Part shown: one piece after another, positions 1,310 through 61,091 of the stretch
Layout: each line of letters starts with the position of its first letter
How positions within the stretch are numbered: the first letter of the stretch is position 1
Origin: a virus
Taxonomy: Duplodnaviria; Heunggongvirae; Uroviricota; Caudoviricetes; Crassvirales
DNA length: 64,000 bases
IMG/VR virus record: IMGVR_UViG_2974732849_000001
Direction: 5' to 3' (one strand)
Notes under the pieces: model-generated
What the model was told of the DNA's origin: nothing
What the model saw: the letters and a program-made list of their open reading frames with translations, nothing else
Database searches by the model: none
Position numbers and translations under genes: made by a program

Positions 1310-4300
1310 ATGATAAAGAAATCTACATGGCAGATAAAAGGTATGCAGAGGGACTTGTCTGTAAGCAAATTCTCTTCTGAGTATGCTTATGAGAACAAGA
1401 ATATAAGGATAATGTCTACCGATGATAATACCCTACTCAGCATAGTAAATGAGAAGGGTACTAAAGAGGTATCAAACATAGAAGGTATAGACTCTATAAA
1501 GGGATTGCCTATAGGACAAGCTACAATTAATGGTTATCTAGTACTGTTCACTACAGACCAAGACAATGGAAAAGATTACATATATAAGATATGGTTTGAC
1601 AAGGACAGCTTGCATGGAGTAATATTATATGATAGTAACAAAGGTAATCTTAACTTTAATCCTCTATATCCTATAGAGACATTGTCATTCTATGAAGATG
1701 ATAACATACAGAAAGTATATTGGACTGATGGATTAAACCAGCCCAGAGTTATCAATATTACTTCTATAGAAGATTACACACCCAATTCTTTTGACTTTGT
1801 TATGAGTTTGAATCCCGGTTCAACTGTTAACATAACCAATATAGAAAAAGGGTATAGTGGGATATTCCCGTCAGGGGTAATACAATATTGTGTTACAGTC
1901 TATACCAAGAATGCTCAGGAGTCCAATATACTGGCTATATCTCCTCTATATTACATAACAAAGTATGATAATGGAGGTAGTCCTGAGGATTCTTTATCTG
2001 TGAGTTTTAATGTGACAGTGTCTGTTAAAGATGTTGCATGTGAATATGTCAGATTATATTCAATACTGAGAACTACACAAGATTCAACTCCCATTGTCAA
2101 AAGAGTTCAAGATATAAAGTTATCTTCCTCTACTCAAACAATCAGTTTTACAGATACTGGTAATATTGGAGAGAGTATTGACCCTACTGAATTATTATAC
2201 TTGGGAGGAGAAGACATATCTTGTGGTACAATGTGCCAAAAGGACAATACATTATTCTTAGGAAATATCAATGTTAATAGAATTGAGCCTGATAGCTCTA
2301 TTAGAGAGTACTTCAGAGGATTAAATGTAAACCTCAATACAGTTACCACAATTAATTTGGGAACACCTTCTGGATATTATCAACATGAGTTTCAGTTGAA
2401 TAACAACTCTAGCACTATTAAGATATTTAAATATTTGGAGTGGTACAGATTTGGCATACAGTTTAAGCATAAGTCAGGCAAGTGGTCTTCTCCAGTATTC
2501 ATAAAAGACGCTCAGATTACCAAAACACCCGGTACTAATGACTTATATGGTAGTTTTGGTGTTTCAAATCTGGTATTCTATAAGTGCATACCTGAGGTAT
2601 CATTCAATGATGATACCATAATTGGTAAACTAAAGGATTTAGGATATATTGGATTCAGACCTATAATAGTATATCCCTCTATAGGGGATAGAGAAGTAAT
2701 ATGCCAAGGAGTTTTATGTCCCACTGTTTATAATGTTGGTGACAGATTCAGTAATTCCCCATTTGTACAGTCTTCTTGGTTCTCAAGACCCAACATTCCC
2801 TTTGATGTGATGAGGTCAGAGTCTGGGGATGCAGGCTTGCCAGATGTGTCACCTATATTTGACGTTCCTGAAAAGGCATTATATAGTGACCAAACCTTGT
2901 CAAGATATGGTATAATAAATAATGATAAGCAGTTTTATTCTCCTAATGAGTCGGTTAATATAAATATTTCCTTGATTGATACAGGTACTTGGGCTGAGTG
3001 TAGGCATAGTAGTCCTATACCAGGAAACACTCATAGGAATGCGGAGATACAGAATATATCCTACCCTCCTGCCACTCCACGCCTTGCAGGAGGAAACCAT
3101 TTGCTGACAGATTTTAGTGAATATGTGGAGAAGCATAAACATGAGTTTTTTGTAGACCAATCAATAGTTACTCTTCATTCCCCAGATATTGAATTTAACA
3201 GTGAAGTTGAGAATTATGATATTTCCAAGTGTAAGCTGAGGATAATAGGTGCAACTTTGGTAACCGCCAGTGTAGGGGATATTGACATTGTAACTTCTAC
3301 CACAGGAACTACCATGGTTGGCGCAGATAATGAGAAGTTCCCACCAACAGGGTTTTATAAGGAGTCTTGTGGTAGTGTCAACATATCCCCTTGGGCATTC
3401 AGAAGCCAATTGGCTAATATCAACTGGATAGATAATATTCAAAGAGACTTTGGTGGTGTTATGCCCTCACAATATAGAAGGATGCAGGTAGGCTTTGCCA
3501 CATATCCTTGGCATAGGAGTGGAGGTCTTGATGGTACAGGCTGGGCAGATGAGAATGGATATAGACCTGCCAAGTTACAGTATAAGAGGCTATCCAATTT
3601 GAAATTCTCTGCCACTAACCTGTACCTTAGCAGTACTAGTACATGGGATTCAGGGGAACTTGCAGATGCACAGATTTTTAATTCAAACGAGGTTACTCCA
3701 CTCAAATTGAAAGCTCAGGAGCATTCTGGAAAAGGCACTTTAGTGTACTATGGAAATGTAGATAAGATTACTTCAAATACTGAATATTCAGGTAGTGATT
3801 ATTACCAGATTGTAACATCTTCCACCTATAATCAGAATGATACCTCATATACTAACCACGACATATATGTTGGTGACTTTACACCTACCATACCTTTCAC
3901 TAATAACTCAATAAATAAGGCATATGACCCTGTACACATAAAGTACAAGTCTACCCCTCATGCTGTTATTGTACTTGAAGACAAGTACAACTTGGGTAAG
4001 TACTCATATAAGGTTTTGCCTACTATCATAGATGGTAATGATTATGGAGAGCCTACATCTAGTAGTTGGCCTGTAAACCGTGTTGCAATAACTCATGATG
4101 GTGCCCCTAACTTCTGGGATACTTTGGAAGTATACAACTCTGTGTCTCAGGATGTTATAGGAGACTTTGTAGGTACTGGTCCTAATAAGACAGTTAAAAG
4201 TATCCAATATGGCTGGTGGTGGTTAGCAGAATTATACAGAAGTGATGTCACTAATAGGTTTGGAGGAGAGTCTGATGATGCTATACAGAGTAATCAATGG

Positions 4301-5671
4301 TTACCATGTGGAGAAACTACCTATTTCTATGATGATGACTCCAGCCATACTTATCTTGTAAAGTACTTGGAAGGAGACACATACTTCCAAAGATATGACC
4401 ATTTAAAGACTTATCCATTTACTTTGGAAGATGAAAACTCGGTGACTGAGATAATGTCATTTATGTGTGAGACAAGGGTAAATCTAGATGGCAGGTATGA
4501 CAATAATAGAGGCAATACTTCTAATCTATATATAACCCCTGAGAACTTTAACAAGCTAAATCAAGTATACAATCAAAAGGATAACTTCTTTACCTATAAG
4601 GTAAGTACTGATGATACTTCGGTATTGAACAAATTTCCTAATGTGGTTACTTGGACTAAGACTAAAACTGCTGGAGAACTTATTGATACTTGGACCAATA
4701 TCACTCTTGCATCCACTCTTGATTTTGATGGTGATAAGGGTAGTATAACAGCTCTGAGAATGCATAATAATAATATCCTTGCTTTTCAAGATAAAGGCAT
4801 TAGTCAGATATTGTATAATGAGAATGTGCAGATTTCTCCCACTAATGGAGTGCCTATTGAAATTGCCAACAGTGGAAAAGTTACTGGTAAGAGGTACTTA
4901 TCTGATAGTATAGGATGTTCTAATAAGTGGTCTATATGCAGGACACCTAATGGTACCTATTTTATAGATGATATTACCAAAGGTATCTTCCTACTCAACA
5001 ACCAGTTGGATAACATCTCTGATAGGCTTGGATTCCATTCATGGATTAACAGTAGGTCAACTGGAATAAATGTATGGAATCCTAAAGACTTTAGTGGATT
5101 TGTAACATACTATGATAAGGTAAATGGAGATGTATTCTTCATAAGCAAGGATGAGTGCTTGGCATTTTCAGAACCATTAGGCCAGTTCTCTTCATTCTAC
5201 AGCTATGAGAATGTGCCATATTTCTCCAATATACTAGACAGGGGACTGTGGGTAAAGGATGGGAAGCTATGGCTGCACAATGAAGGTGATTATAATACCT
5301 TCTTTAACAGTTACCAGCCTTTCTATACTACTGTCATATCCAATCCTGATATGACCCAGGATAAGATATTCAATACTCTTGAGTTCAGGGCAGACAGTTG
5401 GAACAGTGAAGGTAAGCTATTGGATACAACCTATGATACTCTCAGTGTTTGGAATGAATACCAAAGTGGTGAATCCAAGCTTACCCATGTACTTGGAAGA
5501 CCTTCAAGTCTCAAGAAGAAGTTCAGGATATGGAGGGCTAATATACCAAGGGATAAATCAAACAATAAAGACAGGATGAGAAATCCTTGGTTATATCTTA
5601 AGCTATCTATGGAATCTGAAAATACAAATAAGACCATATTGCATGATATGGTGGTGCACTACTTTGAATAA
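1310..5671 (+). CDS. large virion structural protein (tail/fibre-like), function unknown
   Basis: 1453-aa uninterrupted ORF, rich in Asn/Thr/Ser/Tyr as is typical of tail or fibre proteins. A hairpin terminator follows it. Confidence 0.5.
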   Translation: MIKKSTWQIKGMQRDLSVSKFSSEYAYENKNIRIMSTDDNTLLSIVNEKGTKEVSNIEGIDSIKGLPIGQATINGYLVLFTTDQDNGKDYIYKIWFDKDSLHGVILYDSNKGNLNFNPLYPIETLSFYEDDNIQKVYWTDGLNQPRVINITSIEDYTPNSFDFVMSLNPGSTVNITNIEKGYSGIFPSGVIQYCVTVYTKNAQESNILAISPLYYITKYDNGGSPEDSLSVSFNVTVSVKDVACEYVRLYSILRTTQDSTPIVKRVQDIKLSSSTQTISFTDTGNIGESIDPTELLYLGGEDISCGTMCQKDNTLFLGNINVNRIEPDSSIREYFRGLNVNLNTVTTINLGTPSGYYQHEFQLNNNSSTIKIFKYLEWYRFGIQFKHKSGKWSSPVFIKDAQITKTPGTNDLYGSFGVSNLVFYKCIPEVSFNDDTIIGKLKDLGYIGFRPIIVYPSIGDREVICQGVLCPTVYNVGDRFSNSPFVQSSWFSRPNIPFDVMRSESGDAGLPDVSPIFDVPEKALYSDQTLSRYGIINNDKQFYSPNESVNINISLIDTGTWAECRHSSPIPGNTHRNAEIQNISYPPATPRLAGGNHLLTDFSEYVEKHKHEFFVDQSIVTLHSPDIEFNSEVENYDISKCKLRIIGATLVTASVGDIDIVTSTTGTTMVGADNEKFPPTGFYKESCGSVNISPWAFRSQLANINWIDNIQRDFGGVMPSQYRRMQVGFATYPWHRSGGLDGTGWADENGYRPAKLQYKRLSNLKFSATNLYLSSTSTWDSGELADAQIFNSNEVTPLKLKAQEHSGKGTLVYYGNVDKITSNTEYSGSDYYQIVTSSTYNQNDTSYTNHDIYVGDFTPTIPFTNNSINKAYDPVHIKYKSTPHAVIVLEDKYNLGKYSYKVLPTIIDGNDYGEPTSSSWPVNRVAITHDGAPNFWDTLEVYNSVSQDVIGDFVGTGPNKTVKSIQYGWWWLAELYRSDVTNRFGGESDDAIQSNQWLPCGETTYFYDDDSSHTYLVKYLEGDTYFQRYDHLKTYPFTLEDENSVTEIMSFMCETRVNLDGRYDNNRGNTSNLYITPENFNKLNQVYNQKDNFFTYKVSTDDTSVLNKFPNVVTWTKTKTAGELIDTWTNITLASTLDFDGDKGSITALRMHNNNILAFQDKGISQILYNENVQISPTNGVPIEIANSGKVTGKRYLSDSIGCSNKWSICRTPNGTYFIDDITKGIFLLNNQLDNISDRLGFHSWINSRSTGINVWNPKDFSGFVTYYDKVNGDVFFISKDECLAFSEPLGQFSSFYSYENVPYFSNILDRGLWVKDGKLWLHNEGDYNTFFNSYQPFYTTVISNPDMTQDKIFNTLEFRADSWNSEGKLLDTTYDTLSVWNEYQSGESKLTHVLGRPSSLKKKFRIWRANIPRDKSNNKDRMRNPWLYLKLSMESENTNKTILHDMVVHYFE

Positions 5672-16300: not shown

Positions 16301-17875
16301 AGAACACTTAGTAAATCAGATGAGGAAGCATTTAATGTTATAATGAAAGCTTTAAGTGCCAAGCCACAAAAGGTTAAGGATATGTCTAATGAAAAGACTA
16401 TGCTATTCAATCCTGATGAGGTTCCTACTGTTAATACAGCTCCTATTACCAATATAGTAACTCCTGCTACTGTTAACCAAGGCAATACTCAAACAGGTGC
16501 TGCTTACACTGCACAAAAGGAGCAGGCAATCAATAACCATGATGAGGAGTTTGAGGATGAGTTTACTTTAAGAAGAGTAGACTCCACAGAAGCTACTGCA
16601 TGGAATCAGGAAAAAGAGCTTGATTGGATTGCAAAGACATTGCCTCAATTAAGTGAAAGTGATAGGGTACATATAGTAAAGGGTCTTATTAAAGTAGGAA
16701 GGCAAGGAGCATTGGCTTGGGGTCAATTTGATAAAGGTGTTGTCACTTTATCTGATATAGCTGCTGAAGGTACTGCATACCATGAAGCATTCCATGCTGT
16801 GTTTAATCTCCTTCTAGACAATAATGAGAGAACAGTATTATTGAATGAGTATAGAGGAAAGCATCCTAATATGGGTAACCTTGAGCTGGAAGAAGAACTG
16901 GCTGAGGATTTCAGAACATTTGTGATGCAAGGAGGAAAGGATACCAGAAGCTTAGGAAGAAAGATAATAGACTTCTTTAAGTCATTATTCATCAAGACTA
17001 GATACTGGAAAGACTTCAGGCCATCTTCTATCTACTACTTCAGGGCTATTAATGAAGGGAAATATGCTAATAAAGAGGAAAAGATTAAATCTCTTGATGA
17101 ATCCAGACTTAGACAAGAGGAGTATACTCCGGAAATGCTGGATATACTAAAAAATTCAAGGGATGAGCAGGGCAATTTATTGGCACCTAATAAGAAACCC
17201 TCAAACCTTACTGAAAGGCAATATGCCCATGTAAGAACCAAAGCATTTAAAGAATGGTTTGGGGACTGGGAAAATAATCCCGAGGAAGCTAGTAAGGTGG
17301 TTGATGAAAACGGTGAACCTCTGGTAGTATATCATGGTACCAACAGCCAATGGACTACATATGACCCAAATCTGTTTGGTTCTGCTACAGATGAAGGATA
17401 TTATGGTAAGGGGTTATACTTGTCTTCTGTAAAGAACAAGGCTATGCAATATGGTAATATTATGGAGCTGTTTGTCAATATGAGGAACCCATTCATTGTA
17501 GGTATGGATAGTACTTTAGACATGAATGAGTCCACTAGAAGAGGTGAAATAGCAAACATGTTCAATAGAGAAAATGCTCCTGATGAACTGAAGCAATATG
17601 ACGGTGTTCTATACAGTGGTGCAGAAGGTAAATTTGAGGAAATAGTAGTTCCTACTGCCAACCAAGTAAAATCAGCTACCAATAATGTTGGCACTTACAG
17701 TAGAACCAATGATGATACTAGGTATAGGAAGCTTCCTAAAGGAACATTGACCACATTTGATATGATGGATGACACTATTAAAGAGAACTTGTTGAAGAAG
17801 GGCTGGACTAAGGAGAAGTTTGATTCAATTTCCCAAGAAGAAAGAGACCAAGCCATCAAGTGTATAGCCTTCTAG
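10319..17875 (+). CDS. giant virion protein (2518 aa) with zincin-like HExxH motif and C-terminal PARP/diphtheria-toxin-like ADP-ribosyltransferase domain
   Basis: HEAFH at about 16781-16795. C-terminus has VVYHGT (about 17324-17341), YYGKGLYLSS (about 17400-17430) and KFEEIVV (about 17630-17650), in the spacing expected for H-Y-E class ARTs. Ends with TAG. Confidence 0.55.
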   Translation: MEYQDITKTGPVGLKGLKGLNRIPEMGEFELSVLGGTRALQQSLAPSTSEDVGMELADKGYGQSIYDEDINFVSQADDLNEVRAIEQPWYAQLGAGLAKGAVLTGTTFLDGTVGLVLGAGTAINEGRWSGLWDNDFSKAMQSVNEWSEEALPNYYTRDEQEEPWYENIFTANFIGDKFIKNLGFSVGAFYSGNITAAGLKASKLPQLIGAIKNSSKAPAIVNSAVGATISSVNEGRIEALNNSKDWFELQKAQLDDKYNQRMQAIGDAYGGTEMYNQLVSAESQAYNEALEKLSEDRLKMGNADLLMNIPVLLASNITQFGKLYANGFKTARKTTNIMGKAGEYTAGTTRLGTVAAITRGALSEGAEEMAQSIASRTAGNYYSTDVNNFYKSKTDPEASQETLDWVKAFAQGVNETVNEGSSWEEFFIGALTGALGMPRFRSMRNKQGGIQSPITIEGGAINEWRDYNERMAREERIANYMNDRVNSPEFKNYYQGLIRHNKYQNDMNRAAEQGDEFNFKNAEHAQLVSDIAMFDNAGRMEDLNTLIDAAFDTSDENLASIVENTTTTLEDGSKVGPFVDKNGNPMYATPEGKQEMIEKLQQNHDEMTKTISDYLKIRDDVDIRTGQQLSDDQLEELTWMKSQIGNWAERATAMSGEVKSAIGNVIGNLNSFLRFNQQVRSSEGQSHKGLSEGYQQADNNIRAIEKAINTLSFVKGQEDNVLPRTLIDYPKFTKGLINEINEVDDTVLSGDEKEDIITKINDIVKLGNASEVYNNKLNEYLRNPQKQIEDHIKAGEQAAQQEAEKKSNDLKASLSSAQNLQEFRAILDDQDDIVNRNNTLKDLEDEGNEMAKNYRETSQYNNEVSRIIQSSDEEPQVKQDAIKLLQDQFNNSENLEQMANPNSIFINNDNAFDEDSEGDIELSTTRFQEAQYALQKAMSQVNDDNRFKDRFSPEYRKPVEKREGTTRGDNRRDTTGDSGTPTVPVVTSSEDLPVTEVPVGNVTPEMVNEENKKANERVEAPQRPSRDRVNQFYRPAIPELHIEASKEGDFRPFDVVVGEREKGVDFSGIYGYLRDQDTFRYLNEGNLKVGDELGFMIDPDFNDKTIFIIDRKNNQVVGSLDESDYSVSRYEGLKGLEERIKDEFANRENKAGKFIATPVTRVSKMMVGRIPYGSTERSLKDIPNVSSEDRRPVFGIIKNGVLTTNGKVNDSLVIKPVDMGQKEGRLYLLVPNGAGKYSPAAVRVKHFNNEEFNLNDPSVSSTPVGEDIKNAINNLSMATSQGDVSAAMQDLAQDLYMQDIMVTWFSSKSGDGIVISKKVKRPDGTYEKVIIDGKEQIKEDKYDIYFSTGSKTAIISGVEWDITAAEEQGDTSAFNAPKDPDDIYNEILGHLIKFNLPLQVSTKRINEGAYNNRLINSDILTSNITEASVRSTWFTTDYFDDEGNLHQAVSPASVAPQPKRKIETPVGGTEGAISGTRIVSAFTNKPYFVDLKTNTIRDEQGRNVKVTDSNRVLFDLAWAQDNFGSFTDSSIMVDNKVLTPNGQVLDRTSQKYITGQEAQDVKDTIAGKKKEREDKVAKSKKIISEIYENQRRIDKTRTDGEFYYVLEDDGEYHQYSRVHSRLGSNWIESSKQIEALTQVRAKLSQLVDVPAQYDNYLKFLENKYKISLDGYQGKADAKSRDTIVNIVRDKMSGSNSQRALDAGSAVDSIIRQYFTIRDVSRIIKPSNMSENAFMDLITTLNRVKSNMEHMGERFLADNIILYQKYPDGTRVAGEVDILSVDKDGNFRIYDVKSSRYSFYDFTDRYGHKVNYFTTPSATQRMSAKDYYTLQLSAYKNLFESQYGTPITKLAIMPFVLSYDRENVSAVQSEKGIPVEYNPAVNVPLVSSVEVNKVAETPATPAQNQQVLPIFETSLETQNPVDRILPENSLGKDSIVGYYEKDGKLYKGYIKKAGEVEGIPIYITKERDRGFGREGEMNESSSYFVVLPNGKLVDTRTLSKSDEEAFNVIMKALSAKPQKVKDMSNEKTMLFNPDEVPTVNTAPITNIVTPATVNQGNTQTGAAYTAQKEQAINNHDEEFEDEFTLRRVDSTEATAWNQEKELDWIAKTLPQLSESDRVHIVKGLIKVGRQGALAWGQFDKGVVTLSDIAAEGTAYHEAFHAVFNLLLDNNERTVLLNEYRGKHPNMGNLELEEELAEDFRTFVMQGGKDTRSLGRKIIDFFKSLFIKTRYWKDFRPSSIYYFRAINEGKYANKEEKIKSLDESRLRQEEYTPEMLDILKNSRDEQGNLLAPNKKPSNLTERQYAHVRTKAFKEWFGDWENNPEEASKVVDENGEPLVVYHGTNSQWTTYDPNLFGSATDEGYYGKGLYLSSVKNKAMQYGNIMELFVNMRNPFIVGMDSTLDMNESTRRGEIANMFNRENAPDELKQYDGVLYSGAEGKFEEIVVPTANQVKSATNNVGTYSRTNDDTRYRKLPKGTLTTFDMMDDTIKENLLKKGWTKEKFDSISQEERDQAIKCIAF

Positions 17876-17898
17876 TCAATAGGATGAAATTTTTTATT

Positions 17899-17930
17899 AG
17901 GGCAGGGTTAATCACCTTGCCCTATTTTAT
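17899..17930 (+). terminator. rho-independent terminator of + strand virion operon
   Basis: Stem AGGGCAGGG, loop ttaatca, stem CCTTGCCCT, followed by ATTTTATT. Confidence 0.6.
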
Positions 17931-17934
17931 TAGG

Positions 17935-17990
17935 TAAAAAAAAAATTAAAAAAAAAATAGGAGGAGGAGTAGAACTTAATCTACTCACTC
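17935..17990 (-). terminator. candidate terminator of the convergent minus-strand operon
   Basis: Hairpin GAGTAG, loop aacttaat, CTACTC at 17967-17986. Read on the minus strand it is followed by T10 and T9 runs (plus-strand A-runs at 17935-17957). Confidence 0.4.
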
Positions 17991-18093
17991 CCCCTACTTC
18001 CATCATTAACAATTCACTTAGATTTACTGGCATTATTAGGATTAAATAACCACCAAAATATACCAGCACAAATTACTGTTGCAGCTAATTCAC

Positions 18094-18726
18094 TCATAAT
18101 TTATATCTCCATTTATAGCCATAGGATTTACCATTAGGGTATATCCTTAGCTGATTATTAATTGCTTTCTTTATCTTCTCCCAATCTTTATTTAAGGTCT
18201 GAGACAGTTCCTTGGCTGCTTGAGTAGTAGAATTATACTCTGCTATAAATTTCCCATCTAAGCTATATTGTAGAACAGGTTTATTAAGCCAGCTATTTGA
18301 TTGTCCTCTTTTATTAATAGACTGTCTCTCTTTAACAGTTCCATATCCAACATTGTATTTTCTTGTACACCATTCAAGATTAGACACAATATTATTGTTC
18401 TTAATTTCATCCTTATGATTAATCTCTTTATAATCATTAGGATTGGGAATGAAGTGTATTGCTACTAATCTGTGTACAGAATGCCATTTAGCAATATGAT
18501 TGCTACTTTTTAAGTTTACTAACTCATAGCCATCATCATTAATCATAGGCTTTAGGACCCTATCTTCTAGACTACATCCCTTCCCACTTCTTCCAAGAGA
18601 CTTAACCCTACCTAAGTTTGATACTTGGTACAAACCTTCATATCCTTGAATATCTTTCCAAATTTCTTCCATATTAAATGTTCTATTGTTCACTGCAAAG
18701 ATACAAATAAATCCACTAATATGCAA
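18094..18726 (-). CDS. HNH homing endonuclease (NUMOD4-type N-terminus)
   Basis: N-terminal WKDIQGYEGLYQVSNLGRVKSL is a NUMOD4 signature. HNH core HFIPNPNDYKEINHKDEIKNNNIVSNLEW. The gene is free-standing at the convergence point of two operons. Confidence 0.7.
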   Translation of the reverse strand: MHISGFICIFAVNNRTFNMEEIWKDIQGYEGLYQVSNLGRVKSLGRSGKGCSLEDRVLKPMINDDGYELVNLKSSNHIAKWHSVHRLVAIHFIPNPNDYKEINHKDEIKNNNIVSNLEWCTRKYNVGYGTVKERQSINKRGQSNSWLNKPVLQYSLDGKFIAEYNSTTQAAKELSQTLNKDWEKIKKAINNQLRIYPNGKSYGYKWRYKL

Positions 18727-53889: not shown

Positions 53890-54266
53890 GTTTCTATGTC
53901 CATGGCAACATCACATGTATTACTTAAGGTGCGACATGATAATACTCTTTCAGCCAAGTCATTACCCAGAGTTTTCCATACATTCCTTGCAACCTTGAAC
54001 ATCTTTATCTTAGCCCTGCATTCAGCTATCCTACGGCCAACTGTCTCATCAAAGGTATCATCACTACTACATCTGGCTTTTCCCCTGCAAACTAGAGTAT
54101 CCCCCATTGATACAGCCTCTTTTGCCATTCTCCCGGGTATATCCATTATATTAGGAATTGCCTCGCTACCAAGCAGTTGTAACGTGAAGAGCAATTCACA
54201 TACCACCACTTTGTTCTTTTCATCTACTTTAAACTCCTTCTTGATGATTCTAACTCTATTTTTCAT
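53862..54266 (-). CDS. hypothetical protein
   Basis: 134-aa ORF. Confidence 0.35.
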   Translation of the reverse strand: MKNRVRIIKKEFKVDEKNKVVVCELLFTLQLLGSEAIPNIMDIPGRMAKEAVSMGDTLVCRGKARCSSDDTFDETVGRRIAECRAKIKMFKVARNVWKTLGNDLAERVLSCRTLSNTCDVAMDIETWHLKKLLP

Positions 54267-55402
54267 AATTCTATTTCGTTAATGTTTGAAATACTTTTTA
54301 CAGACTCTACATTATACTCCTCAATTATCTTAGCCACTAACTCCTGTTCCCTTGTATCCACAAAGTAAGGTATTATCACAATAGGGAATTCATGCCTAAG
54401 GATTCTGCCTATCCTTTGTTTTGTTATAATCTCCGAGCTATTCAAATTGCAGAATATTCCCACTCTACAGTTAGTCAGATTTACTCCTTCATTAAGAATA
54501 TTGCATGCAGATATATGTTTTATCTCATTCCTGTTAAACAGTTCCAAGTTCTTCTCCGAGTCCCTGTTCTTGGAAGTTATATTATGCCTGCATATTCTCT
54601 CTGACTGTTCTATACTACTGCAAAATGTCAATACCTTATAATTCCTAAGCTTGACTAGAAGAGATAATACAAGAGGTTCCTTTTGTTCAGAGCACCACTT
54701 CAGTCTTTTACCTGCTGTAGAGAGCCATAAGTTCTTTATTCTCTCATTTCTTGAGTTAAAGTATTTATTCTTGTACCACTCTATAAGTGAAGAGACACTA
54801 TCATAATAGCCTTTCTGGGTAGTAATTATGTCACGCCCAAACTTCCTAGATTTATAAACATACCTTGTAGTATCCAAATATAAGGGTAACAAGTATACTG
54901 TAGGTTCAGGTAATACATTATCCTTTACAGCTTCCTTAAGACCACACTTGATAACCTCAGCATTGTGTCTATACAGGAAATAATCTCTGGTATTTCCCTT
55001 GATGGTAGCAGACAATCCAATGAATGACTCATTGATATTAATGGTCTCAAGGATTTCCAACCTTGCATCAGAGAGGTGCTGCATTTCATCAGCAACCACT
55101 ATATCAAAGTCTGCTTTCCTGTACTTCTTCATGGACTCATAACACTCAAGGGTTATACAGTCAGACATGATTCCTCCCCACATCTCAATCTCATCTCTCC
55201 AAGTTTTCTTGTGTACAGTCTTGGCTACCAGAATGAGTATAGTGGCAGGTCTTCCTTTAATTTTGGACACTCTATCACATATATGGTTAATAAGACCTAT
55301 TGCTACCTTGGTCTTACCCATTCCGGTAATAAGTTCCAAGATAAGGTATTTAGTTTTATCAATCTTTGACAAAGCTAACTCTTGTGCTTCTTCTCTAGTC
55401 AT
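54263..55402 (-). CDS. superfamily-2 DEAD/DEAH-like helicase
   Basis: Motif I ELITGMGKTKVAIG, motif II VVADEMQH, motif VI QRIGRILR. Confidence 0.6.
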   Translation of the reverse strand: MTREEAQELALSKIDKTKYLILELITGMGKTKVAIGLINHICDRVSKIKGRPATILILVAKTVHKKTWRDEIEMWGGIMSDCITLECYESMKKYRKADFDIVVADEMQHLSDARLEILETININESFIGLSATIKGNTRDYFLYRHNAEVIKCGLKEAVKDNVLPEPTVYLLPLYLDTTRYVYKSRKFGRDIITTQKGYYDSVSSLIEWYKNKYFNSRNERIKNLWLSTAGKRLKWCSEQKEPLVLSLLVKLRNYKVLTFCSSIEQSERICRHNITSKNRDSEKNLELFNRNEIKHISACNILNEGVNLTNCRVGIFCNLNSSEIITKQRIGRILRHEFPIVIIPYFVDTREQELVAKIIEEYNVESVKSISNINEIEL

Positions 55403-56339: not shown

Positions 56340-57140
56340 CTATTTTCTTATTTTACTTAAATCCAAAAATGTAGAAGTATTCCCACCAGTGATTACTGTT
56401 GGTACAGTCCCATCCCATTTCTCAATCCACATCTTCTCAAGGATTTCAGGGGTAAGTGCTTGCTGTCTCAACTCATTGGCCTTCTTCTCTGCCTCTGCTG
56501 CCACAATAAGCTTCTTGGCTTGTGCCTCTGCTACCTTCACCTCATTCTCTACCTGCATAGCCTGTTGGATAGCTTTATTCTTGGCATTTACTGACTCTAC
56601 AATAGTCTGAGGGTATTTGAGACCTGAAGTGAGTTGTTCTAATTGAAAGTTCTCTTTGGCAAGTGCTTGAGCCAAGTACCTTTCAATAGCATTTTCAATA
56701 CTGTCCCTTTTACTTACAATATCATCTGTGGTAAACTTGTTTAATTGGATTCTAAAAGCGTCCTTTACATAATTATATAGTGTACCACTAATGACTTCAC
56801 TTAATTCCTTCCTGTATTTCTTGAAGACAGCAGGTGATTTACCATCAATAATCTTCAATGAAACAGTGGGGTCTACAGTGAACTCGGAACCATCCTTTGC
56901 ATTGATTGTAAAAGGTTCATAATCAATGGTCTGTACATAAGTAGGATACTCATATACTGTAGTGGTCCAAGGATTATACCACACAATGCCAGTTACCAAA
57001 GAAGCATCATCTACCCCCTTGTCATTACCATATAAGTTCACCTTAATGCCCTCACAGCCTGCATCTACCTTCTCCATGCACGATGTTACTGAGAGCATTA
57101 CAAATAGGGACAATATCCCTAGAATCAATTTACTTTTCAT
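56340..57140 (-). CDS. SPFH/band-7 (HflK/C-like) lipoprotein
   Basis: Signal peptide with lipobox LSVTSC. The C-terminal coiled region QAMQVENEVKVAEAQAKKLIVAAEAEKKANELRQQ is typical of SPFH proteins. Confidence 0.5.
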   Translation of the reverse strand: MKSKLILGILSLFVMLSVTSCMEKVDAGCEGIKVNLYGNDKGVDDASLVTGIVWYNPWTTTVYEYPTYVQTIDYEPFTINAKDGSEFTVDPTVSLKIIDGKSPAVFKKYRKELSEVISGTLYNYVKDAFRIQLNKFTTDDIVSKRDSIENAIERYLAQALAKENFQLEQLTSGLKYPQTIVESVNAKNKAIQQAMQVENEVKVAEAQAKKLIVAAEAEKKANELRQQALTPEILEKMWIEKWDGTVPTVITGGNTSTFLDLSKIRK

Positions 57141-57327
57141 CTCTTTTAAATTTAATTGTTGTTAAACATTTTGTTTTAATTGATAAATAGAATATTACTA
57201 CTATCAAAAGAAATCCTAATACATTCTCAACAGAATTTGGTGTTGACATCATTCCAAGCCCTAATGTGAGCAGGGCAACGAAGATTATAAACCATACAGC
57301 AATCTTTGCTACTATTTCAGCTTTCAT
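57130..57327 (-). CDS. small 2-TM membrane protein
   Basis: 65 aa with two hydrophobic helices. Overlaps the SPFH gene. Confidence 0.4.
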   Translation of the reverse strand: MKAEIVAKIAVWFIIFVALLTLGLGMMSTPNSVENVLGFLLIVVIFYLSIKTKCLTTIKFKRDEK

Positions 57328-58127
57328 ACTACTTCAATTACTTTTACATTGTCAGGTAAAGCTTCCCGTCCCCAATCCCTATATGAATTAGTGAAATAAA
57401 CCTCCTTGTAATTCTCGCTAAGTGTGGCAATACCTTTAGGATTAACCATGTGGGTTACATAGATGGCTCTATCCCTATTAGGACAATGAGATTCAAGTAA
57501 TTGTGCAATACCTTTAAAGGTACCACCTCCATCACACAAGTCATCAATGACCACAAGTGGAAGGTCTTGATTTTCCTCTATAACTTCTGGGTTTTCAATC
57601 TTGAAACCAGAGAGTTGTCCTGTCTTTGGGTCCCTAACTTTACTACATATCACATTCTTAGTGGAGTCTCCACCATACCTTTGCAATGCGCCTCTATCAG
57701 GATATACTTTCAAGTATCCTCTAAAGTCTGGTATAGGAGTGGCAATATCTCCCCAATACGCATTAATAAGGTCTTGTACCCTGTATGAGTGGGGTTCAAG
57801 TACATGAACTGCTTGAGGAGACATATTATTTATTACCTGTGCAACTATGCTGAGAGAAAATGACTCATCATAACTTATTACCCTATCCATTCTCATGCTC
57901 ATAAGATAGGTAATATTCAAACTAAACAAGACACCTTGCCTATTAAGAATATCACCTACCTGCATAAGAATAAACAAGTCAGTAGGATTGCATATCCTAC
58001 ATATCACAGATAAATAATCTTTCCTGTCAATATCCTTTAAGACAATATGAGGTTCACCATCAGGGAACTGTATAACCTTATACTTTATACTACTCTTTTC
58101 AGGTCTAATAAGATTCAATACTTGCAT
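57324..58127 (-). CDS. ribose-phosphate pyrophosphokinase (Prs) family protein; candidate ADP-ribose pyrophosphate synthetase (Adps-like)
   Basis: Matches Prs blocks: FPDGEPHIV, NITYLMSMRMDR (Prs Y..RQDR), VHVLEPHS, and VVIDDLCDGGGTF (PRPP-binding loop). Confidence 0.6.
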   Translation of the reverse strand: MQVLNLIRPEKSSIKYKVIQFPDGEPHIVLKDIDRKDYLSVICRICNPTDLFILMQVGDILNRQGVLFSLNITYLMSMRMDRVISYDESFSLSIVAQVINNMSPQAVHVLEPHSYRVQDLINAYWGDIATPIPDFRGYLKVYPDRGALQRYGGDSTKNVICSKVRDPKTGQLSGFKIENPEVIEENQDLPLVVIDDLCDGGGTFKGIAQLLESHCPNRDRAIYVTHMVNPKGIATLSENYKEVYFTNSYRDWGREALPDNVKVIEVV

Positions 58128-58128
58128 A

Positions 58129-59649
58129 CTAATCCTCCAATACTATAGAGTTATTAACATTGGCTCTAATCTGGCTTAGAGACCACTCTTTAACCAACTT
58201 GCCATCTTCAAAGACAGTCTGTAGGCAGCTTTTATCCTCTTGTTCCTTAGTTACTTGGTCTTCAGCTATATACTTATTACCATCACTCTGGACACAGATA
58301 AGACCTTTCAATGACTTCTTTGTGCCATCATCAGTCTTTGGGTCTTTGAAGATTTCTCTCCCTTCTCCATTAACTTGGCACCAAGTAGCCTTCATAGCAA
58401 AGCCAAGAGAATCCCTGCTCTTATACTGATAGGTATATGAACCTACACCGAGTACAAGGTTAGTAGCTGCAAAGCCTCTCTCCTCAAGTCTCTTGTAAAT
58501 TTCCTTCTGCCTCTCAAGAGTAATGGAATCACCATAGATGATACCTACTTTAGGATTGAGTACCTTATAGCCCTTCTCATTGATAGTCCCACCAAAGATT
58601 TCCCACAAGACTTCATAAGCACCTACCCATTCAACAGGGCTGATTATCTTAAAAGCTTCTACTTGTTCCCGCCAATTCTCAAAGTCCTCCTGTTTATATC
58701 CTGCAATGATATGTACAGGGTTTCCACTATCAGGTCTTATGACTAGTCTACCATCTCTTGCAAGGATTTCATCCTTCAATTTAGGCAGATACTCTGTCAT
58801 TACCTTCCAAAAGTCCCAAGTATCAGAAACAATAGATACAAATCCAGTAGGATATACCTCTGTAATCAGTCTTCTGAATGTTTCCAACTCATCCTCTTTA
58901 CCTCCTGCACACATTACTGAATGCTCAGTAGCTGGTATTGTAGCTGCAATAAGCTCCTCTCCAGCATTTGCATTATAATACTCTTCAAGACCAGCAATGG
59001 CAGGTATAGTCTCACTACCACAGAATGAGGTCATGTGTCCCATACCAGACATAATGGCAGCTTCTACTCCAGCCATACCTCTCATAGAGGAGTCATGCAC
59101 AAGGAAGTTAAGGTCTACATCCTTGAATCCTGTCTTTCTTGCATGCCTTATCAACTCTTTCTTATACAATCTTGCAGTAGTTGCACTTGTCATAGGCAAC
59201 CATAAGGTAGTTGAGATAAGAGTCTCAAAGTAATTGGTAAGCCAGAAGAAGTCAGGATGTGTGTTGATAAATGTCAATGCAGGCACTCTAATAGGACATA
59301 GTGTGCCTTCAGGCAATGCTTTGATTCTGATAGGAAGATAGCCAAGGTCATGCAACTCCTCAATATGCTTAGTACCTACATTGTTAGGTCCTAAGAATGT
59401 ATCCACCCTTCTCTTGAACTCTGCAACTGCTATATCCTTAGGCTTATTGAAGAAGTCCTGTTGGAACTGCTTCATCAAGTACTCCTTGATAAAGTACTAA
59501 ATACCAAATACAACAGCACCTTCTGTAGCTTCAGGATAATAATGACAGCTTCTTGGAGTCCAGTTAGAATAGACATATTCCGTGTTTTCAGGATATTGCC
59601 TTCTATGGTCTAACTTGTAGCCATCAGTCAATAAAATTGCTTCTTTCAT
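58129..59649 (-). CDS. nicotinamide phosphoribosyltransferase-family protein (Nampt/Namat-like), 506 codons with one in-frame TAG at 59497-59499; ends with TAG
   Basis: N-terminus ILLTDGYKLDHRRQYPENTEYVYS, then LPIRIKALPEGT, FFWLTNYFETL, VSIVSDTWDF, LVIRPDSGNP, IIYGDSIT and FKDPKTD. All are collinear with eukaryotic and bacterial Nampt. Without read-through the gene splits into a 50-aa fragment and a 449-aa fragment. Confidence 0.6.
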
Positions 59650-59757
59650 GCTTTTTTTTTTGTTAAACTTATATTTACTTAATCAATAGGTTGTAAAAAA
59701 AAAGAAAGGTAAGGATATTGTTAGTATCCTTACCTTTACTATGAAAATATTTCTTAC

Positions 59758-60192
59758 CTAGTCTCCAAATATCTGATAAGAATATGAAGTACCACCAAGA
59801 TGCTCTACTGTCCTCTTCAAGTGGACCTCAAGCCTTTCTTTTTTATTCATTGTAGACCATTCTCTTGGCTTGAAACATGGAGGACAAGAATCCTTGCTAA
59901 TCATGTACTCATAAGCCTCCTTACTCATGTTGATAGTCTGAGTAGCCGGTTTACATTTTCTAGTGTGGAAAGTGATAATCTCGGGATTTTTCCCATTCTT
60001 ATCAGTTATCCTCACAGAGCCTTTGGTCATCTTGTCCAAATCTTCAGTTTGGACATAGATGGTCTTTTTGAATACTTTACCGGATTTGGTTTTTCTCTCA
60101 ATGACTTTTCGAGTTGTTTTAAGGCACTCTTCCTTGCTGAACATTGTACTTCCTTGAAGTTCAATACTCAGACTTAGTTTGATTTCACTCAC
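59758..60192 (-). CDS. hypothetical protein
   Basis: 144-aa ORF with CPPC. Confidence 0.35.
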   Translation of the reverse strand: MSEIKLSLSIELQGSTMFSKEECLKTTRKVIERKTKSGKVFKKTIYVQTEDLDKMTKGSVRITDKNGKNPEIITFHTRKCKPATQTINMSKEAYEYMISKDSCPPCFKPREWSTMNKKERLEVHLKRTVEHLGGTSYSYQIFGD

Positions 60193-60889: not shown

Positions 60890-61019
60890 GCCAAATAAAC
60901 AAAACCTTTATTGAATCTAAGAAAGGTATAAGACTTTTTTTTTCCTTCCATCCATCCTATATTAGCCCTATATTAATCCTATCCTTCATGGGTGCCTTGT
61001 ATTATTATAATTCCCTGCG

Positions 61020-61091
61020 TGCTCCTAACAAGACTCGAACTTGTATCCCAGACTTAGGAGGTCTATGTTCTATCCTTTGAACTATAGAAGC
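61020..61091 (-). tRNA. tRNA-Arg (anticodon CCU)
   Basis: Minus strand GCTTCTATAGTTCAAAGGATAGAACATAGACCTCCTAAGTCTGGGATACAAGTTCGAGTCTTGTTAGGAGCA. 7-bp acceptor stem with one G-U pair, D-loop GG, anticodon loop CU-CCU-AA, T-arm ACAAG-TTCGAGT-CTTGT. 72 nt; CCA not encoded. Confidence 0.55.

Follow-up and report, generated by a model that had tools for sequence, protein, structure and literature searches.

Does a pair of adjacent PRPP-synthetase-like and Nampt-like genes in a crAss-like phage genome encode a known NAD+-rebuilding counter-defence module, and is the module still in working order in the phage that carries it? The original prediction proposed a NARP1-like module, on the grounds that a 267-aa protein with all Prs blocks, including the PRPP-binding loop, adjoins a 506-codon gene collinear with Nampt, and that no NMNAT gene is seen nearby; it held at the same time that sequence cannot separate Prs from Adps or Nampt from Namat. 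The window analysed here, a whole stretch of 64,000 nucleotides, is the last 64 kb (100% match) of the uncultured crAss-like phage cr85_1 (MT774390.1 / NC_055883.1, Steigviridae), whose full genome of 98,164 bp has 97 CDS and 23 tRNAs (an array of 22 outside the window plus one). The record is a metagenome-assembled genome, and a literature search on the name 'cr85_1' returned only irrelevant matches.

Our analysis indicates that the pair is the known NARP1 module (Adps + Namat), and that in the cr85_1 lineage it is very probably non-functional and in the course of being lost. NARP1 biology was described in 2024, and since the supplementary tables of that paper (Osterman et al., 2024) list both cr85_1 genes, the module is of an already known kind.

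Layout of the locus

57324..58127, minus strand: Adps-like gene of Prs-like fold (ADP-ribose pyrophosphokinase), encoding 267 aa; intact in cr85_1
58129..59649, minus strand: Namat-like gene of Nampt fold (nicotinamide ADP-ribose transferase); interrupted frame of 506 sense positions, a predicted pseudogene in cr85_1
59705..59737, minus strand: terminator-like hairpin, 13 pairs followed by T9, separating the Namat start from the gene upstream

A single base separates the two genes, and their adjacency is kept in 76 of 80 related phage loci. The position of the hairpin suggests that the Namat-Adps pair starts its own transcription unit. A sigma-70 promoter scan was uninformative (25 sites against 19.6 expected), the model being unsuited to Bacteroidales and crAss-like promoters. 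Pfam searches of nine flanking genes in the window, and of a 142-aa spacer ORF from the related phage DAC15, detected no NAD-, ADPR-, Nudix- or macro-type domain.

The Nampt-like gene is a member of the Namat family

58411..58443, minus strand: Namat selectivity-clamp helix motif GSYTYQYKSRD, residues 403-413, fitting GS-X-phi-X-phi-X-phi-TRD with aromatic X

Read across its internal stop, the Namat frame matches PHROG 448 over residues 2-502 (E=3.8e-200), collinearity with the family thus extending from end to end, and it scores 561 bits against NCBIfam PRK09198. Pfam places NAMPT_N at residues 5-109, spanning the stop, and NAPRTase at 182-483. Among solved structures its best match is PDB 9W5X/9W5W, against which the frame scores 542 bits, compared with about 231 bits against human NAMPT; it is 52% identical to the 9W5X sequence over 496 aligned positions and 81% identical to its DAC15 counterpart. 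The PDB molecule name for these two entries reads only 'Nicotinamide phosphoribosyltransferase'. We take both to be the Namat of Bacillus phage SPbetaL1, because their residue numbering and motifs match those of Lan et al. (2026).

The clamp motif has tyrosine at positions 3, 5 and 7, with threonine and glutamine at the first two phi positions as in the consensus; the deviations in cr85_1 are lysine in place of N/V at the third phi position and serine in place of threonine ahead of RD. The corresponding segments are GSFTYQYNTRD in 9W5X and GSYTYQYMTRD in Bas63, as against GGALLQKVDRD in the Xcc Nampt. Among the 31 crAss-like relatives scanned, 25 carry the motif, five give no regex match and one (L034) deviates. 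The clamp loop between beta1 and beta2, which in Namat contributes a stacking residue of Arg, Lys or Tyr type, reads TPRSCHYYPEATEG in cr85_1 and is two residues longer than that of SPbetaL1, TPRTSRVEDIDR, and by alignment alone H36 of cr85_1 falls on the SPbetaL1 stacking residue R40 and is followed by Y37-Y38. The catalytic residues D9, Y11, R190, H243, R304 and D306 are kept (SPbetaL1 D13, Y15, R192, H245, R306 and D308), and the counterpart of SPbetaL1 D215 is Glu213 throughout the crAss-like clade. On these alignments the catalytic core is intact in the predicted ancestral Namat gene but not in the cr85_1 copy. Table S2 of Osterman et al. labels the gene (MT774390_00115) an 'Adps-associated' Namat. 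Preference for ADPR-PP over PRPP, with NAD+ made directly, has been measured only for the Namat enzymes of SPbetaL1 and P. foliorum.

The Prs-like gene groups with phage Adps

57516..57545, minus strand: Adps PP loop DDLCDGGGTF, residues 195-204, aligning with ICP1 Adps D212-F221 (DDICDGAASF)
57639..57641, minus strand: codon of the Adps catalytic lysine K163, aligning with SPbetaL1 K162 and ICP1 K185

The 267-aa ORF and its PRPP-binding loop are present as predicted, with VVIDDLCDGGGTF at residues 192-204. Crediting the protein with all Prs blocks overstates the likeness, as it scores 38.7 bits against TIGR01251, for which the cut-off is 113, and its sole Pfam match, PF00156, is sub-threshold at 17.5 bits. 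Its match to PHROG 619 (E=8e-49) places it in the family that also holds the characterised Adps proteins of SPbetaL1 and Bas63. In BLASTP it scores 83.6 bits with Bas63, 64.3 with ICP1 and 60.5 with SPbetaL1, compared with 32.3 for E. coli Prs.

Residues F18, R87, H121, D161, K185, D212, D213 and D216 of ICP1 Adps correspond to F21, R79, H113, D144, K163, D195, D196 and D199 in cr85_1, and alanine at SPbetaL1 K162 or ICP1 K185 abolishes or strongly impairs Adps activity. Since these acceptor and catalytic residues are common to Prs, they point to an active fold and not to specificity. The PP loop is of the remodelled kind conserved among Adps homologues: CDGGGT followed by F in cr85_1 resembles CDGAAS-F in ICP1 and CDGGRT-F in Bas63 (DDICDGGRTF in full), whereas the loop of E. 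coli Prs reads IDTGGT-L (DDMIDTGGTL). The protein also has PHS where Prs has LHA, and it stops about 30 residues short of the E. coli Prs C-terminus, the regulatory helices alpha11-alpha12 being absent. These features place the protein with phage Adps and separate it from cellular Prs, and the homologue (MT774390_00114) stands in the tree table of Osterman et al. (Table S1) with Namat within 10 genes marked Yes. Conversion of ADPR to ADPR-PP with ATP, without PRPP synthesis, has been measured only for Adps from SPbetaL1 and ICP1.

The NARP1 assignment, as opposed to ordinary Prs + Nampt, rests on sequence rules published in 2026 (Lan 2026; Liu 2026), in view of which the statement that sequence cannot separate these enzymes is outdated. 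The alignment that the original prediction proposed, of both proteins with characterised Adps/Namat and with Prs/Nampt, favours Adps/Namat through the clamp motif, the PP loop and the missing C-terminal helices. Even in a very distant phage lineage, these enzymes are told apart from Nampt and Prs by the published criteria, namely the clamp motif for Namat and the PP loop and lost helices for Adps.

The cr85_1 Namat carries a nonsense codon and a pocket substitution

59497..59499, minus strand: Namat codon 51, an in-frame TAG where every intact relative encodes Gln
59089..59091, minus strand: codon TCC for Ser187, where SPbetaL1 has the nicotinamide-stacking Phe (F189)

In GenBank and RefSeq the Namat frame is split into a CDS of 50 aa and another of 448 aa. 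Codon 51 is CAG in DAC15 and DAC17, so that a single C-to-T difference accounts for the TAG in cr85_1. Glutamine is found there in all 30 crAss-like loci whose match covers the position, and the codon is CAG or CAA, never a stop, in 17/17 IMG/VR and 51/51 metagenome matches, which were obtained with the degenerate version of a 35-mer search whose exact version had no match in IMG/VR. An exact-product look-up, on the other hand, returned an identical 50-aa fragment from at least 12 contigs assembled independently of one another. Each of the 10 listed stems from a different sequencing run; codon 51 is TAG in nine of them and TAA in one (L088). Recurrence of the 50-aa product on independent contigs indicates that the stop is real and not a sequencing error.

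The second difference replaces HDFSMRG, as found in 31 crAss-like relatives, with HDSSMRG. This F187S substitution is private to cr85_1, phenylalanine being present also in the seven stop-allele contigs that cover the codon. By itself it need not inactivate Namat, since F189A in SPbetaL1 cuts NAD+ output only about 1.5-fold (Lan et al., 2026).

In an intact copy, Adps would use ATP to place a pyrophosphate on the distal ribose of ADP-ribose, giving ADPR-PP, which Namat would couple with nicotinamide to form NAD+; the module would in this way rebuild NAD+ from both products that defence NADases of SIR2, TIR and SEFIR type generate. In cr85_1, with Adps intact and Namat carrying both the C-to-T nonsense change at Gln51 and serine for the nicotinamide-stacking Phe, translation from the first ATG should end after 50 Namat residues. 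A restart at Met58 would leave out the clamp loop, located upstream of the stop, as well as Asp9 and Tyr11, and with them would go the partner protomer's half of the nicotinamide/adenine pocket. Together, the stop and the loss of these pocket elements on restart make it most likely that the module is non-functional. The sequences themselves establish family membership, the stop codon, its recurrence in independent assemblies and further decay in relatives; we infer the loss of activity, its cause and the biochemical activities of the cr85_1 proteins, such activities having been measured only for the homologues of SPbetaL1, Bas63, ICP1 and P. foliorum.

The Nampt-like gene of the original prediction has kept its whole-length collinearity (PHROG 448, PRK09198) and lost its intact open frame, and the idea of a working counter-defence module in cr85_1 fares poorly against the codon-51 stop, F187S and the independent decay in close relatives described below. 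A practical consequence is that automated catalogues count the truncated 448-aa ORF as Namat, so presence/absence surveys of anti-defence genes can overcount functional copies.

Related genomes show further decay of the module

Additional lesions (deletions, a frameshift or a nonsense codon) occur in 6 of the 10 stop-allele contigs listed and in 4 of 32 CAG/CAA loci, a significant difference (Fisher p=0.0056) that compares contigs of different collections and assemblers. The stop-allele contigs show four different deletion architectures, along with W136* in L096 and single-base indels in L088 and L097; L088 is a relative at 96-97% identity. A sister haplotype with at least 99% nucleotide identity retains CAG at codon 51 and is disrupted instead by W30*, a deletion of 957 bp and Q20* in Adps. 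Q51*, W30* with Adps Q20* and several different deletions all fall within this one phage species; lesions are also present in four other crAss-like genomes, and there is a nonsense codon in Vibrio phage ICP1_2006_A.

In four stop-allele contigs, by comparison, the Namat and Adps frames are otherwise full-length, and their differences from cr85_1 are not mainly non-synonymous (in L091, for example, 8 are synonymous and 3 non-synonymous). Either a recent lesion or some lingering constraint may lie behind this; dN/dS-style counts among these contigs involve differences too few and too non-independent to separate recent loss from residual constraint. The recurrent, independent inactivation of NARP1 may reflect selection against the module in some gut hosts instead of neutral decay, for instance if Adps or Namat is costly or is sensed by a host system. 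We consider this rather unlikely; if true, phage populations would be shutting down a counter-defence pair that had become a burden to them.

Alternative explanations for the locus

Namat could still be functional in cr85_1 if the TAG at codon 51 is read as glutamine, through code-15-type suppression or through a suppressor coming from the host or from a second, co-infecting phage, with synthesis possibly conditional. The TAG does fall exactly on a conserved Gln, some Steigviridae reassign TAG to Gln, and recoded crAss-like phages are sometimes without a suppressor tRNA; in addition, the stop allele persists in many samples, including the four contigs with both frames otherwise open. We examined recoding through stop-to-stop ORFs under four stop-codon sets, long frames with internal TAG, and the terminators of the 97 CDS. 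TAG terminates 21 of these CDS, namely the Namat fragment and 20 others, among them a 2518-aa RNA polymerase subunit, NrdD and primase. ARAGORN, run on the window and on the 22-tRNA array outside it, found no CTA-anticodon (suppressor) tRNA among the 23. The structural genes are intact under code 11, with no late or structural gene needing read-through.

Genome-wide TAG reassignment was rejected, as only the Namat pair fuses into a frame that is homologous across the stop. Other same-frame neighbours split by TAG are NrdD/gp038 and positions 68524-68961/68221-68487 of the record; TAG read-through joins no other annotated genes having evidence for a single product. The code 15 pattern, with in-frame TAG in many and chiefly late genes, avoidance of TAG as terminator and often a tRNA(CTA), does not fit cr85_1. 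Suppression of TAG would also leave unexplained the TAA at the same codon in L088, the deletions, frameshifts and W136* that accumulate in stop-allele contigs, and the inactivation of the sister haplotype by non-TAG routes. We therefore regard a functional, read-through Namat as very unlikely, and prefer the reading of a broken NARP1.

Ordinary NAD salvage would assign the genes as a phage Prs making PRPP and a phage Nampt making NMN, with host NMN adenylyltransferases completing NAD+. It agrees with the names in public annotation and with the Pfam and NCBIfam matches, which are to general Nampt/NAPRTase and Prs models only, and Namat enzymes do keep some PRPP-dependent NMN synthesis in vitro. 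Nevertheless, the Namat frame is far nearer the 9W5X/9W5W protein than Nampt, the Prs-like protein lies well under all Prs cut-offs and has the Adps PP loop, PHS and no C-terminal helices, and SPbetaL1 Adps gave no detectable product in a Prs-type control incubation. Moreover, in the Osterman survey 94% of PRPP-preferring phage Nampt genes were accompanied by a phage NMNAT. The absence of an NMNAT, predicted for the vicinity of the pair, extends to the whole 98-kb genome: neither the NMNAT motif G-x-[FWYL]-x-P-x-H-x-G-H nor a Nudix box occurs in ORFs of at least 70 aa across the 98,164 bp, by a motif scan that is weaker than a profile search, and the annotation of cr85_1 contains no gene for NMNAT, Nudix, PnuC or NadR. 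Together with the clamp motif, the Adps residues, the conserved adjacency and the Osterman listing, this bears out the NARP1 assignment and makes salvage highly improbable.

A third explanation grants that Namat is dead and supposes that Adps is kept for a role of its own, for example converting ADP-ribose or ADPR-based signals to ADPR-PP and so draining or masking them. cr85_1 does have an intact Adps, of which three further stop-allele contigs carry an identical copy, and recent work connects NAD+ synthesis with phage enzymes that act on ADPR-based signals. A separately maintained Adps is hard to reconcile, however, with its deletion or truncation in 5 of the 10 stop-allele contigs listed, its Q20* in the sister haplotype, the three differences in the L089 copy, all of them non-synonymous, and the fact that 97% of Adps-clade genes adjoin Namat; we assign it a very small probability. 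That the stop is a sequencing or assembly error hiding an intact Namat would suit a one-base difference in a metagenome-assembled record and the lack of the stop in IMG/VR and metagenome-collection contigs, but is scarcely credible given the same 50-aa product on 12 contigs, with stops (TAG in nine, TAA in one) in the 10 inspected, all from different runs.

Comparison with known systems

In the NARP1 of SPbetaL1 (Bacillus phage; Adps WIT26982.1), as in the broken module of cr85_1, Prs-like-fold and Nampt-like-fold genes are adjacent. The two modules share 52% Namat identity, the clamp motif, six catalytic residues and the Adps catalytic lysine (K162 and K163). They differ in that Adps is only about 28% identical, the cr85_1 clamp loop is two residues longer with H36-Y37-Y38 for R40, D215 is replaced by Glu across the clade, and cr85_1 has the stop at codon 51 and Ser for F189. 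Gene order differs as well: Namat precedes Adps in cr85_1 and in the crAss-like clade, whereas SPbetaL1, Bas63 and the majority of distant relatives have Adps first.

Bas63 (Escherichia phage JohannRWettstein; QXV81770, QXV81771) has the same pair, with the clamp motif GSYTYQYMTRD and a similar PP loop, although its Namat is 593 aa long with large insertions and 40% identical, and its Adps 27.5% identical. Its NARP1 is intact and experimentally validated, the phage becoming sensitive to SIR2-HerA without the pair, whereas the cr85_1 copy is broken. The Adps of ICP1 (a Vibrio phage), for which Liu et al. (2026, PMC13586617) give structures, is about 25% identical and shares with cr85_1 the acceptor and catalytic residues, the Phe after the PP loop and the lack of alpha11-alpha12; its F92 and F223 are Ile84 and Gly206 in cr85_1, positions not conserved in SPbetaL1 or Bas63 either.

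NARP2 (the Nampt NadV and bifunctional NMNAT NatV of Vibrio phage KVP40), NARP3 (PnuC-like + NadR-like) and canonical salvage all supply NAD+ during infection, and the Nampt of NARP2 and of the canonical route has fold and catalytic core in common with Namat. KVP40-like Nampt is only about 30% identical, however, and the clamp motif and Adps partner point to NARP1 as opposed to NARP2 or NARP3.

The closest cultured relatives are DAC15 and DAC17 (Bacteroides phages, Steigviridae, Wulfhauvirus), with Namat 81% and Adps 47% identical and the same order, strand and genome neighbourhood as cr85_1; the DAC15 Adps is also in Table S1 of Osterman et al. Unlike cr85_1, they have an intact Namat (CAG at codon 51, Phe at 187) and an extra 142-aa ORF between the genes. 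With intact copies in DAC15 and DAC17 and many broken ones elsewhere, gut crAss-like phages offer a natural series for gauging the value of NAD+ reconstitution in Bacteroidales hosts.

Organization of the Adps/Namat locus

The window between 55000 and 62000 is 100% identical to cr85_1 (MT774390.1 / NC_055883.1; Crassvirales, Steigviridae, Kahnovirus oralis), the 98,164-bp record of an uncultured crAss-like phage found in human faeces. The record ends where the window ends, and record position minus 34,164 gives window position. Genome-wide questions were judged on the whole cr85_1 genome, including the remainder outside the window. The sign of the GC skew flips at ~18 kb (window about 17875-18100), coinciding with a switch from plus- to minus-strand genes; the plus-strand side has the structural genes plus one RNA polymerase subunit, and the minus-strand side has RNA polymerase, replication and early genes. 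The gene pair, whose coordinates the original prediction gave correctly, is arranged as follows.

57324-58127, minus strand: Adps-like ORF of 267 aa, holding the predicted PRPP-binding loop VVIDDLCDGGGTF
59649 (start) to one base upstream of the Adps start codon, minus strand: Nampt-family (Namat) frame, matching PHROG 448 and PRK09198
59497-59499: in-frame TAG at Namat codon 51
59705-59737: strong terminator-like hairpin, 13 pairs followed by T9, separating the Namat start from the 144-aa gene upstream
Downstream of Adps, in turn: 65-aa predicted membrane protein, SPFH/Band_7 protein, HNH endonuclease, helicase-like protein

As proposed, the Nampt-like frame is collinear with its family over its full length (PHROG 448, E=3.8e-200, residues 2-502; NCBIfam PRK09198, 561 bits). 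The open gene of 506 codons that had been described is instead interrupted by the TAG, and GenBank and RefSeq annotate two CDS of 50 and 448 aa. The Pfam NAMPT_N domain (residues 5-109) spans the stop, and both pieces are therefore one gene.

Of 80 related phage loci, 76 have the Namat and Adps genes side by side. None of the four genes downstream of Adps carries an NAD-related domain. At window 56340-57140 and 54263-55402, Pfam contradicts the public product names: the product called 'serine protease' belongs to SPFH/Band_7 (80.7 bits), and the one called 'HKD family nuclease' has Helicase_C, ResIII and SNF2-related matches. The reported lack of a nearby NMNAT, taken to favour NARP1, extends to the whole cr85_1 genome, where no ORF of 70 aa or more contains an HxGH motif or a Nudix box, which counts against the NARP2 variant; of the NARP3 pair, neither the PnuC-like nor the NadR-like gene is annotated.

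Family assignment

The original prediction held that sequence alone cannot separate Prs from Adps or Nampt from Namat, a caution overtaken by two structural papers of 2026 that supply sequence rules it did not have. For ICP1 Adps (Liu et al., 2026; PMC13586617), equivalents of F18, R87, H121, D161, K185, D212, D213 and D216 are all retained in cr85_1. The PP loop is of the Adps type, CDGGGT followed by Phe, whereas E. coli Prs shows IDTGGT and then Leu, and the C-terminal helices that are regulatory in Prs are missing. The protein aligns to three characterised Adps with 60-84 bits and to E. coli Prs with 32, reaches 38.7 bits with TIGR01251 (cut-off 113), has a sole, sub-threshold Pfam match, and is matched by phage family PHROG 619 at E=8e-49. 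Judged by these comparisons, it is only distantly related to true Prs.

What distinguishes Namat from Nampt is a 'selectivity clamp' that binds adenine and whose helix has the motif GS-X-phi-X-phi-X-phi-TRD, X being aromatic (Lan et al., 2026; PMC12774641). The helix reads GSYTYQYKSRD in cr85_1, GSFTYQYNTRD in the protein of PDB 9W5X/9W5W, GSYTYQYMTRD in Bas63 Namat and GGALLQKVDRD in Xanthomonas (Xcc) Nampt. The PDB names the 9W5X/9W5W molecule only 'Nicotinamide phosphoribosyltransferase'; we take it to be SPbetaL1 Namat because its residue numbering and motifs agree with Lan et al. It is the best match to cr85_1 Namat among solved structures (542 bits, versus ~231 for human NAMPT), and identities are 81% to the DAC15 orthologue, 52% to the 9W5X sequence and 40% to Bas63 Namat. 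The second-best structure, 9KE8/9KEO (454 bits), reads GAQTYQRNTRD, in which neither position 3 nor position 7 is aromatic, and is thus near Namat in sequence without the published Namat signature. Overall, the clamp motif, the Adps PP loop and the conserved adjacency bear out NARP1 as the system recognised originally.

The codon-51 stop is a probable inactivating mutation

Codon 51 is CAG in DAC15 and DAC17, cultured Bacteroides phages, and the cr85_1 TAG is a single C-to-T change. TAG reassignment does occur in some Steigviridae, but recoding is unsupported here: TAG terminates 20 other CDS of 97, including a 2518-aa RNA polymerase subunit, NrdD and primase, the standard code leaves structural genes intact, and reading through TAG joins no other annotated genes with evidence of a single product. 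No CTA anticodon occurs among the 22 tRNAs of the array (record 1731-4802, outside the window) and the lone window tRNA, a tRNA-Arg(CCT) at 61019-61091; one array member (3591-3679) has a two-base anticodon by ARAGORN and is absent from the GenBank annotation. Among ten inspected contigs with the truncated allele, codon 51 is TAG in nine and TAA in the most divergent (L088), for which amber suppression cannot account. Sequencing error is also unsupported, as the exact 50-residue product is called on 12 contigs, the ten listed all coming from different sequencing runs.

The supported reading is a genuine inactivating mutation with subsequent decay. A degenerate 35-mer around codon 51 recovered CAG/CAA in 17/17 IMG/VR and 51/51 metagenome-contig matches, five of them identical to cr85_1 at the remaining 34 positions. 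The ten contigs show four distinct deletion architectures, each removing much of Namat and Adps; L096 adds W136*, and L088 and L097 carry single-base indels. Secondary lesions affect 6/10 of these contigs versus 4/32 CAG/CAA crAss-like loci (Fisher p=0.0056), a comparison between different collections that is indicative only. In four contigs both frames are otherwise open and the few differences are not mostly non-synonymous, so the lesion may be recent. In cr85_1, Ser187 replaces the nicotinamide-stacking Phe (SPbetaL1 F189); this change is private to cr85_1, Phe being present in 31/31 crAss-like relatives scanned and in all seven stop-allele contigs covering the codon.

NARP1 loss recurs in relatives

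A sister haplotype from human gut (ENA; L149, L150 and L162, or OKTI01004764, OHHP01001123 and OHJA01003299), represented by three of those five 35-mer matches and ~99% identical to cr85_1 in nucleotides, corresponds to window 56340-59760 (L150:2965-4333) and keeps CAG at codon 51. All three contigs have W30*; L150 and L162 add G10D, a 957-bp Namat deletion (window 59118-58162) and Adps Q20*, and L149 ends before the latter two. These different lesions indicate at least two independent NARP1 inactivations within this phage species.

Further, different lesions occur in other gut crAss-like genomes, represented by IMG/VR contigs in which the Namat/Adps region begins at position 5001 of each locus.

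Lesions in four IMG/VR contigs
L024: TAA at codon 18; deletion that leaves the N-terminal part of Namat fused to the C-terminal part of Adps
L033: truncation at codon 324; downstream DNA replaced
L074: residues 21-245 lost in frame
L034: TAG at codon 484; Adps cut after ~82 residues

In ICP1_2006_A (HQ641351.1; L098:2459-3952), codon 38 of the Namat homologue nadV, which encodes Tyr in relatives, is an in-frame TAG, and the gene is annotated as a 37-aa ORF and a shortened nadV; ICP1 record MW794146.1 has a single gene annotated under the match. The N-terminal part of PHROG 12872 (547 positions) matches the Adps-like protein of the window (57324-59649), and its C-terminal part matches Namat; in Osterman Table S1, FJ373894_00125 from Shigella phage Ag3 looks like Adps fused to Namat. 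It seems that deletions have fused the pair repeatedly and that PHROGs has come to treat such fusions as a 'family'.

Initiation at the first ATG of cr85_1 Namat should yield a product of just 50 residues. Translation could conceivably resume at Met58, but that product would be missing Asp9, Tyr11 and the clamp loop, whose equivalents complete the partner subunit's nicotinamide/adenine pocket in the Namat dimer (Lan et al., PMC12774641). Adps is intact in cr85_1, and deleted or truncated in close relatives. Given the stop and Ser187, the working counter-defence module first envisaged is broken in this copy, and we conclude from sequence that cr85_1 probably holds a NARP1 remnant. Only the repeated loss among gut crAss-like phages might merit population-level follow-up.

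Comparison with known NARP1 systems

Both NARP1 and this particular locus have been published before. Osterman et al. (bioRxiv 10.1101/2024.02.11.579819) define NARP1 and both its reactions, and report that it overcomes SIR2-HerA, type I Thoeris, DSR1, DSR2 and SEFIR. Their supplementary tables place MT774390_00114 among Prs/Adps homologues ('Namat within 10 genes: Yes'), label MT774390_00115 (the truncated ORF, which begins with MKQFQQDFF) a Namat that is 'Adps-associated', and include DAC15.

The nicotinamide-binding residue is Asp215 (GTDTIP) in SPbetaL1, Bas63 and 9KE8, whereas all crAss-like homologues with a recognisable motif (L005-L036) have Glu at codon 213 (GSETIP/GSETLP; window 59011-59013), a conservative, clade-wide difference; a D215A mutant loses activity ~8-fold. 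DAC15-type relatives carry a 142-aa ORF without Pfam match between Namat and Adps (L002:3531-3959, DAC15 gp037), which cr85_1 lacks; L009, L010 and L074 have similar spacing (~390 nt). Finally, Namat precedes Adps in the crAss-like clade, whereas the order is reversed in SPbetaL1, Bas63, ICP1 and most distant relatives.
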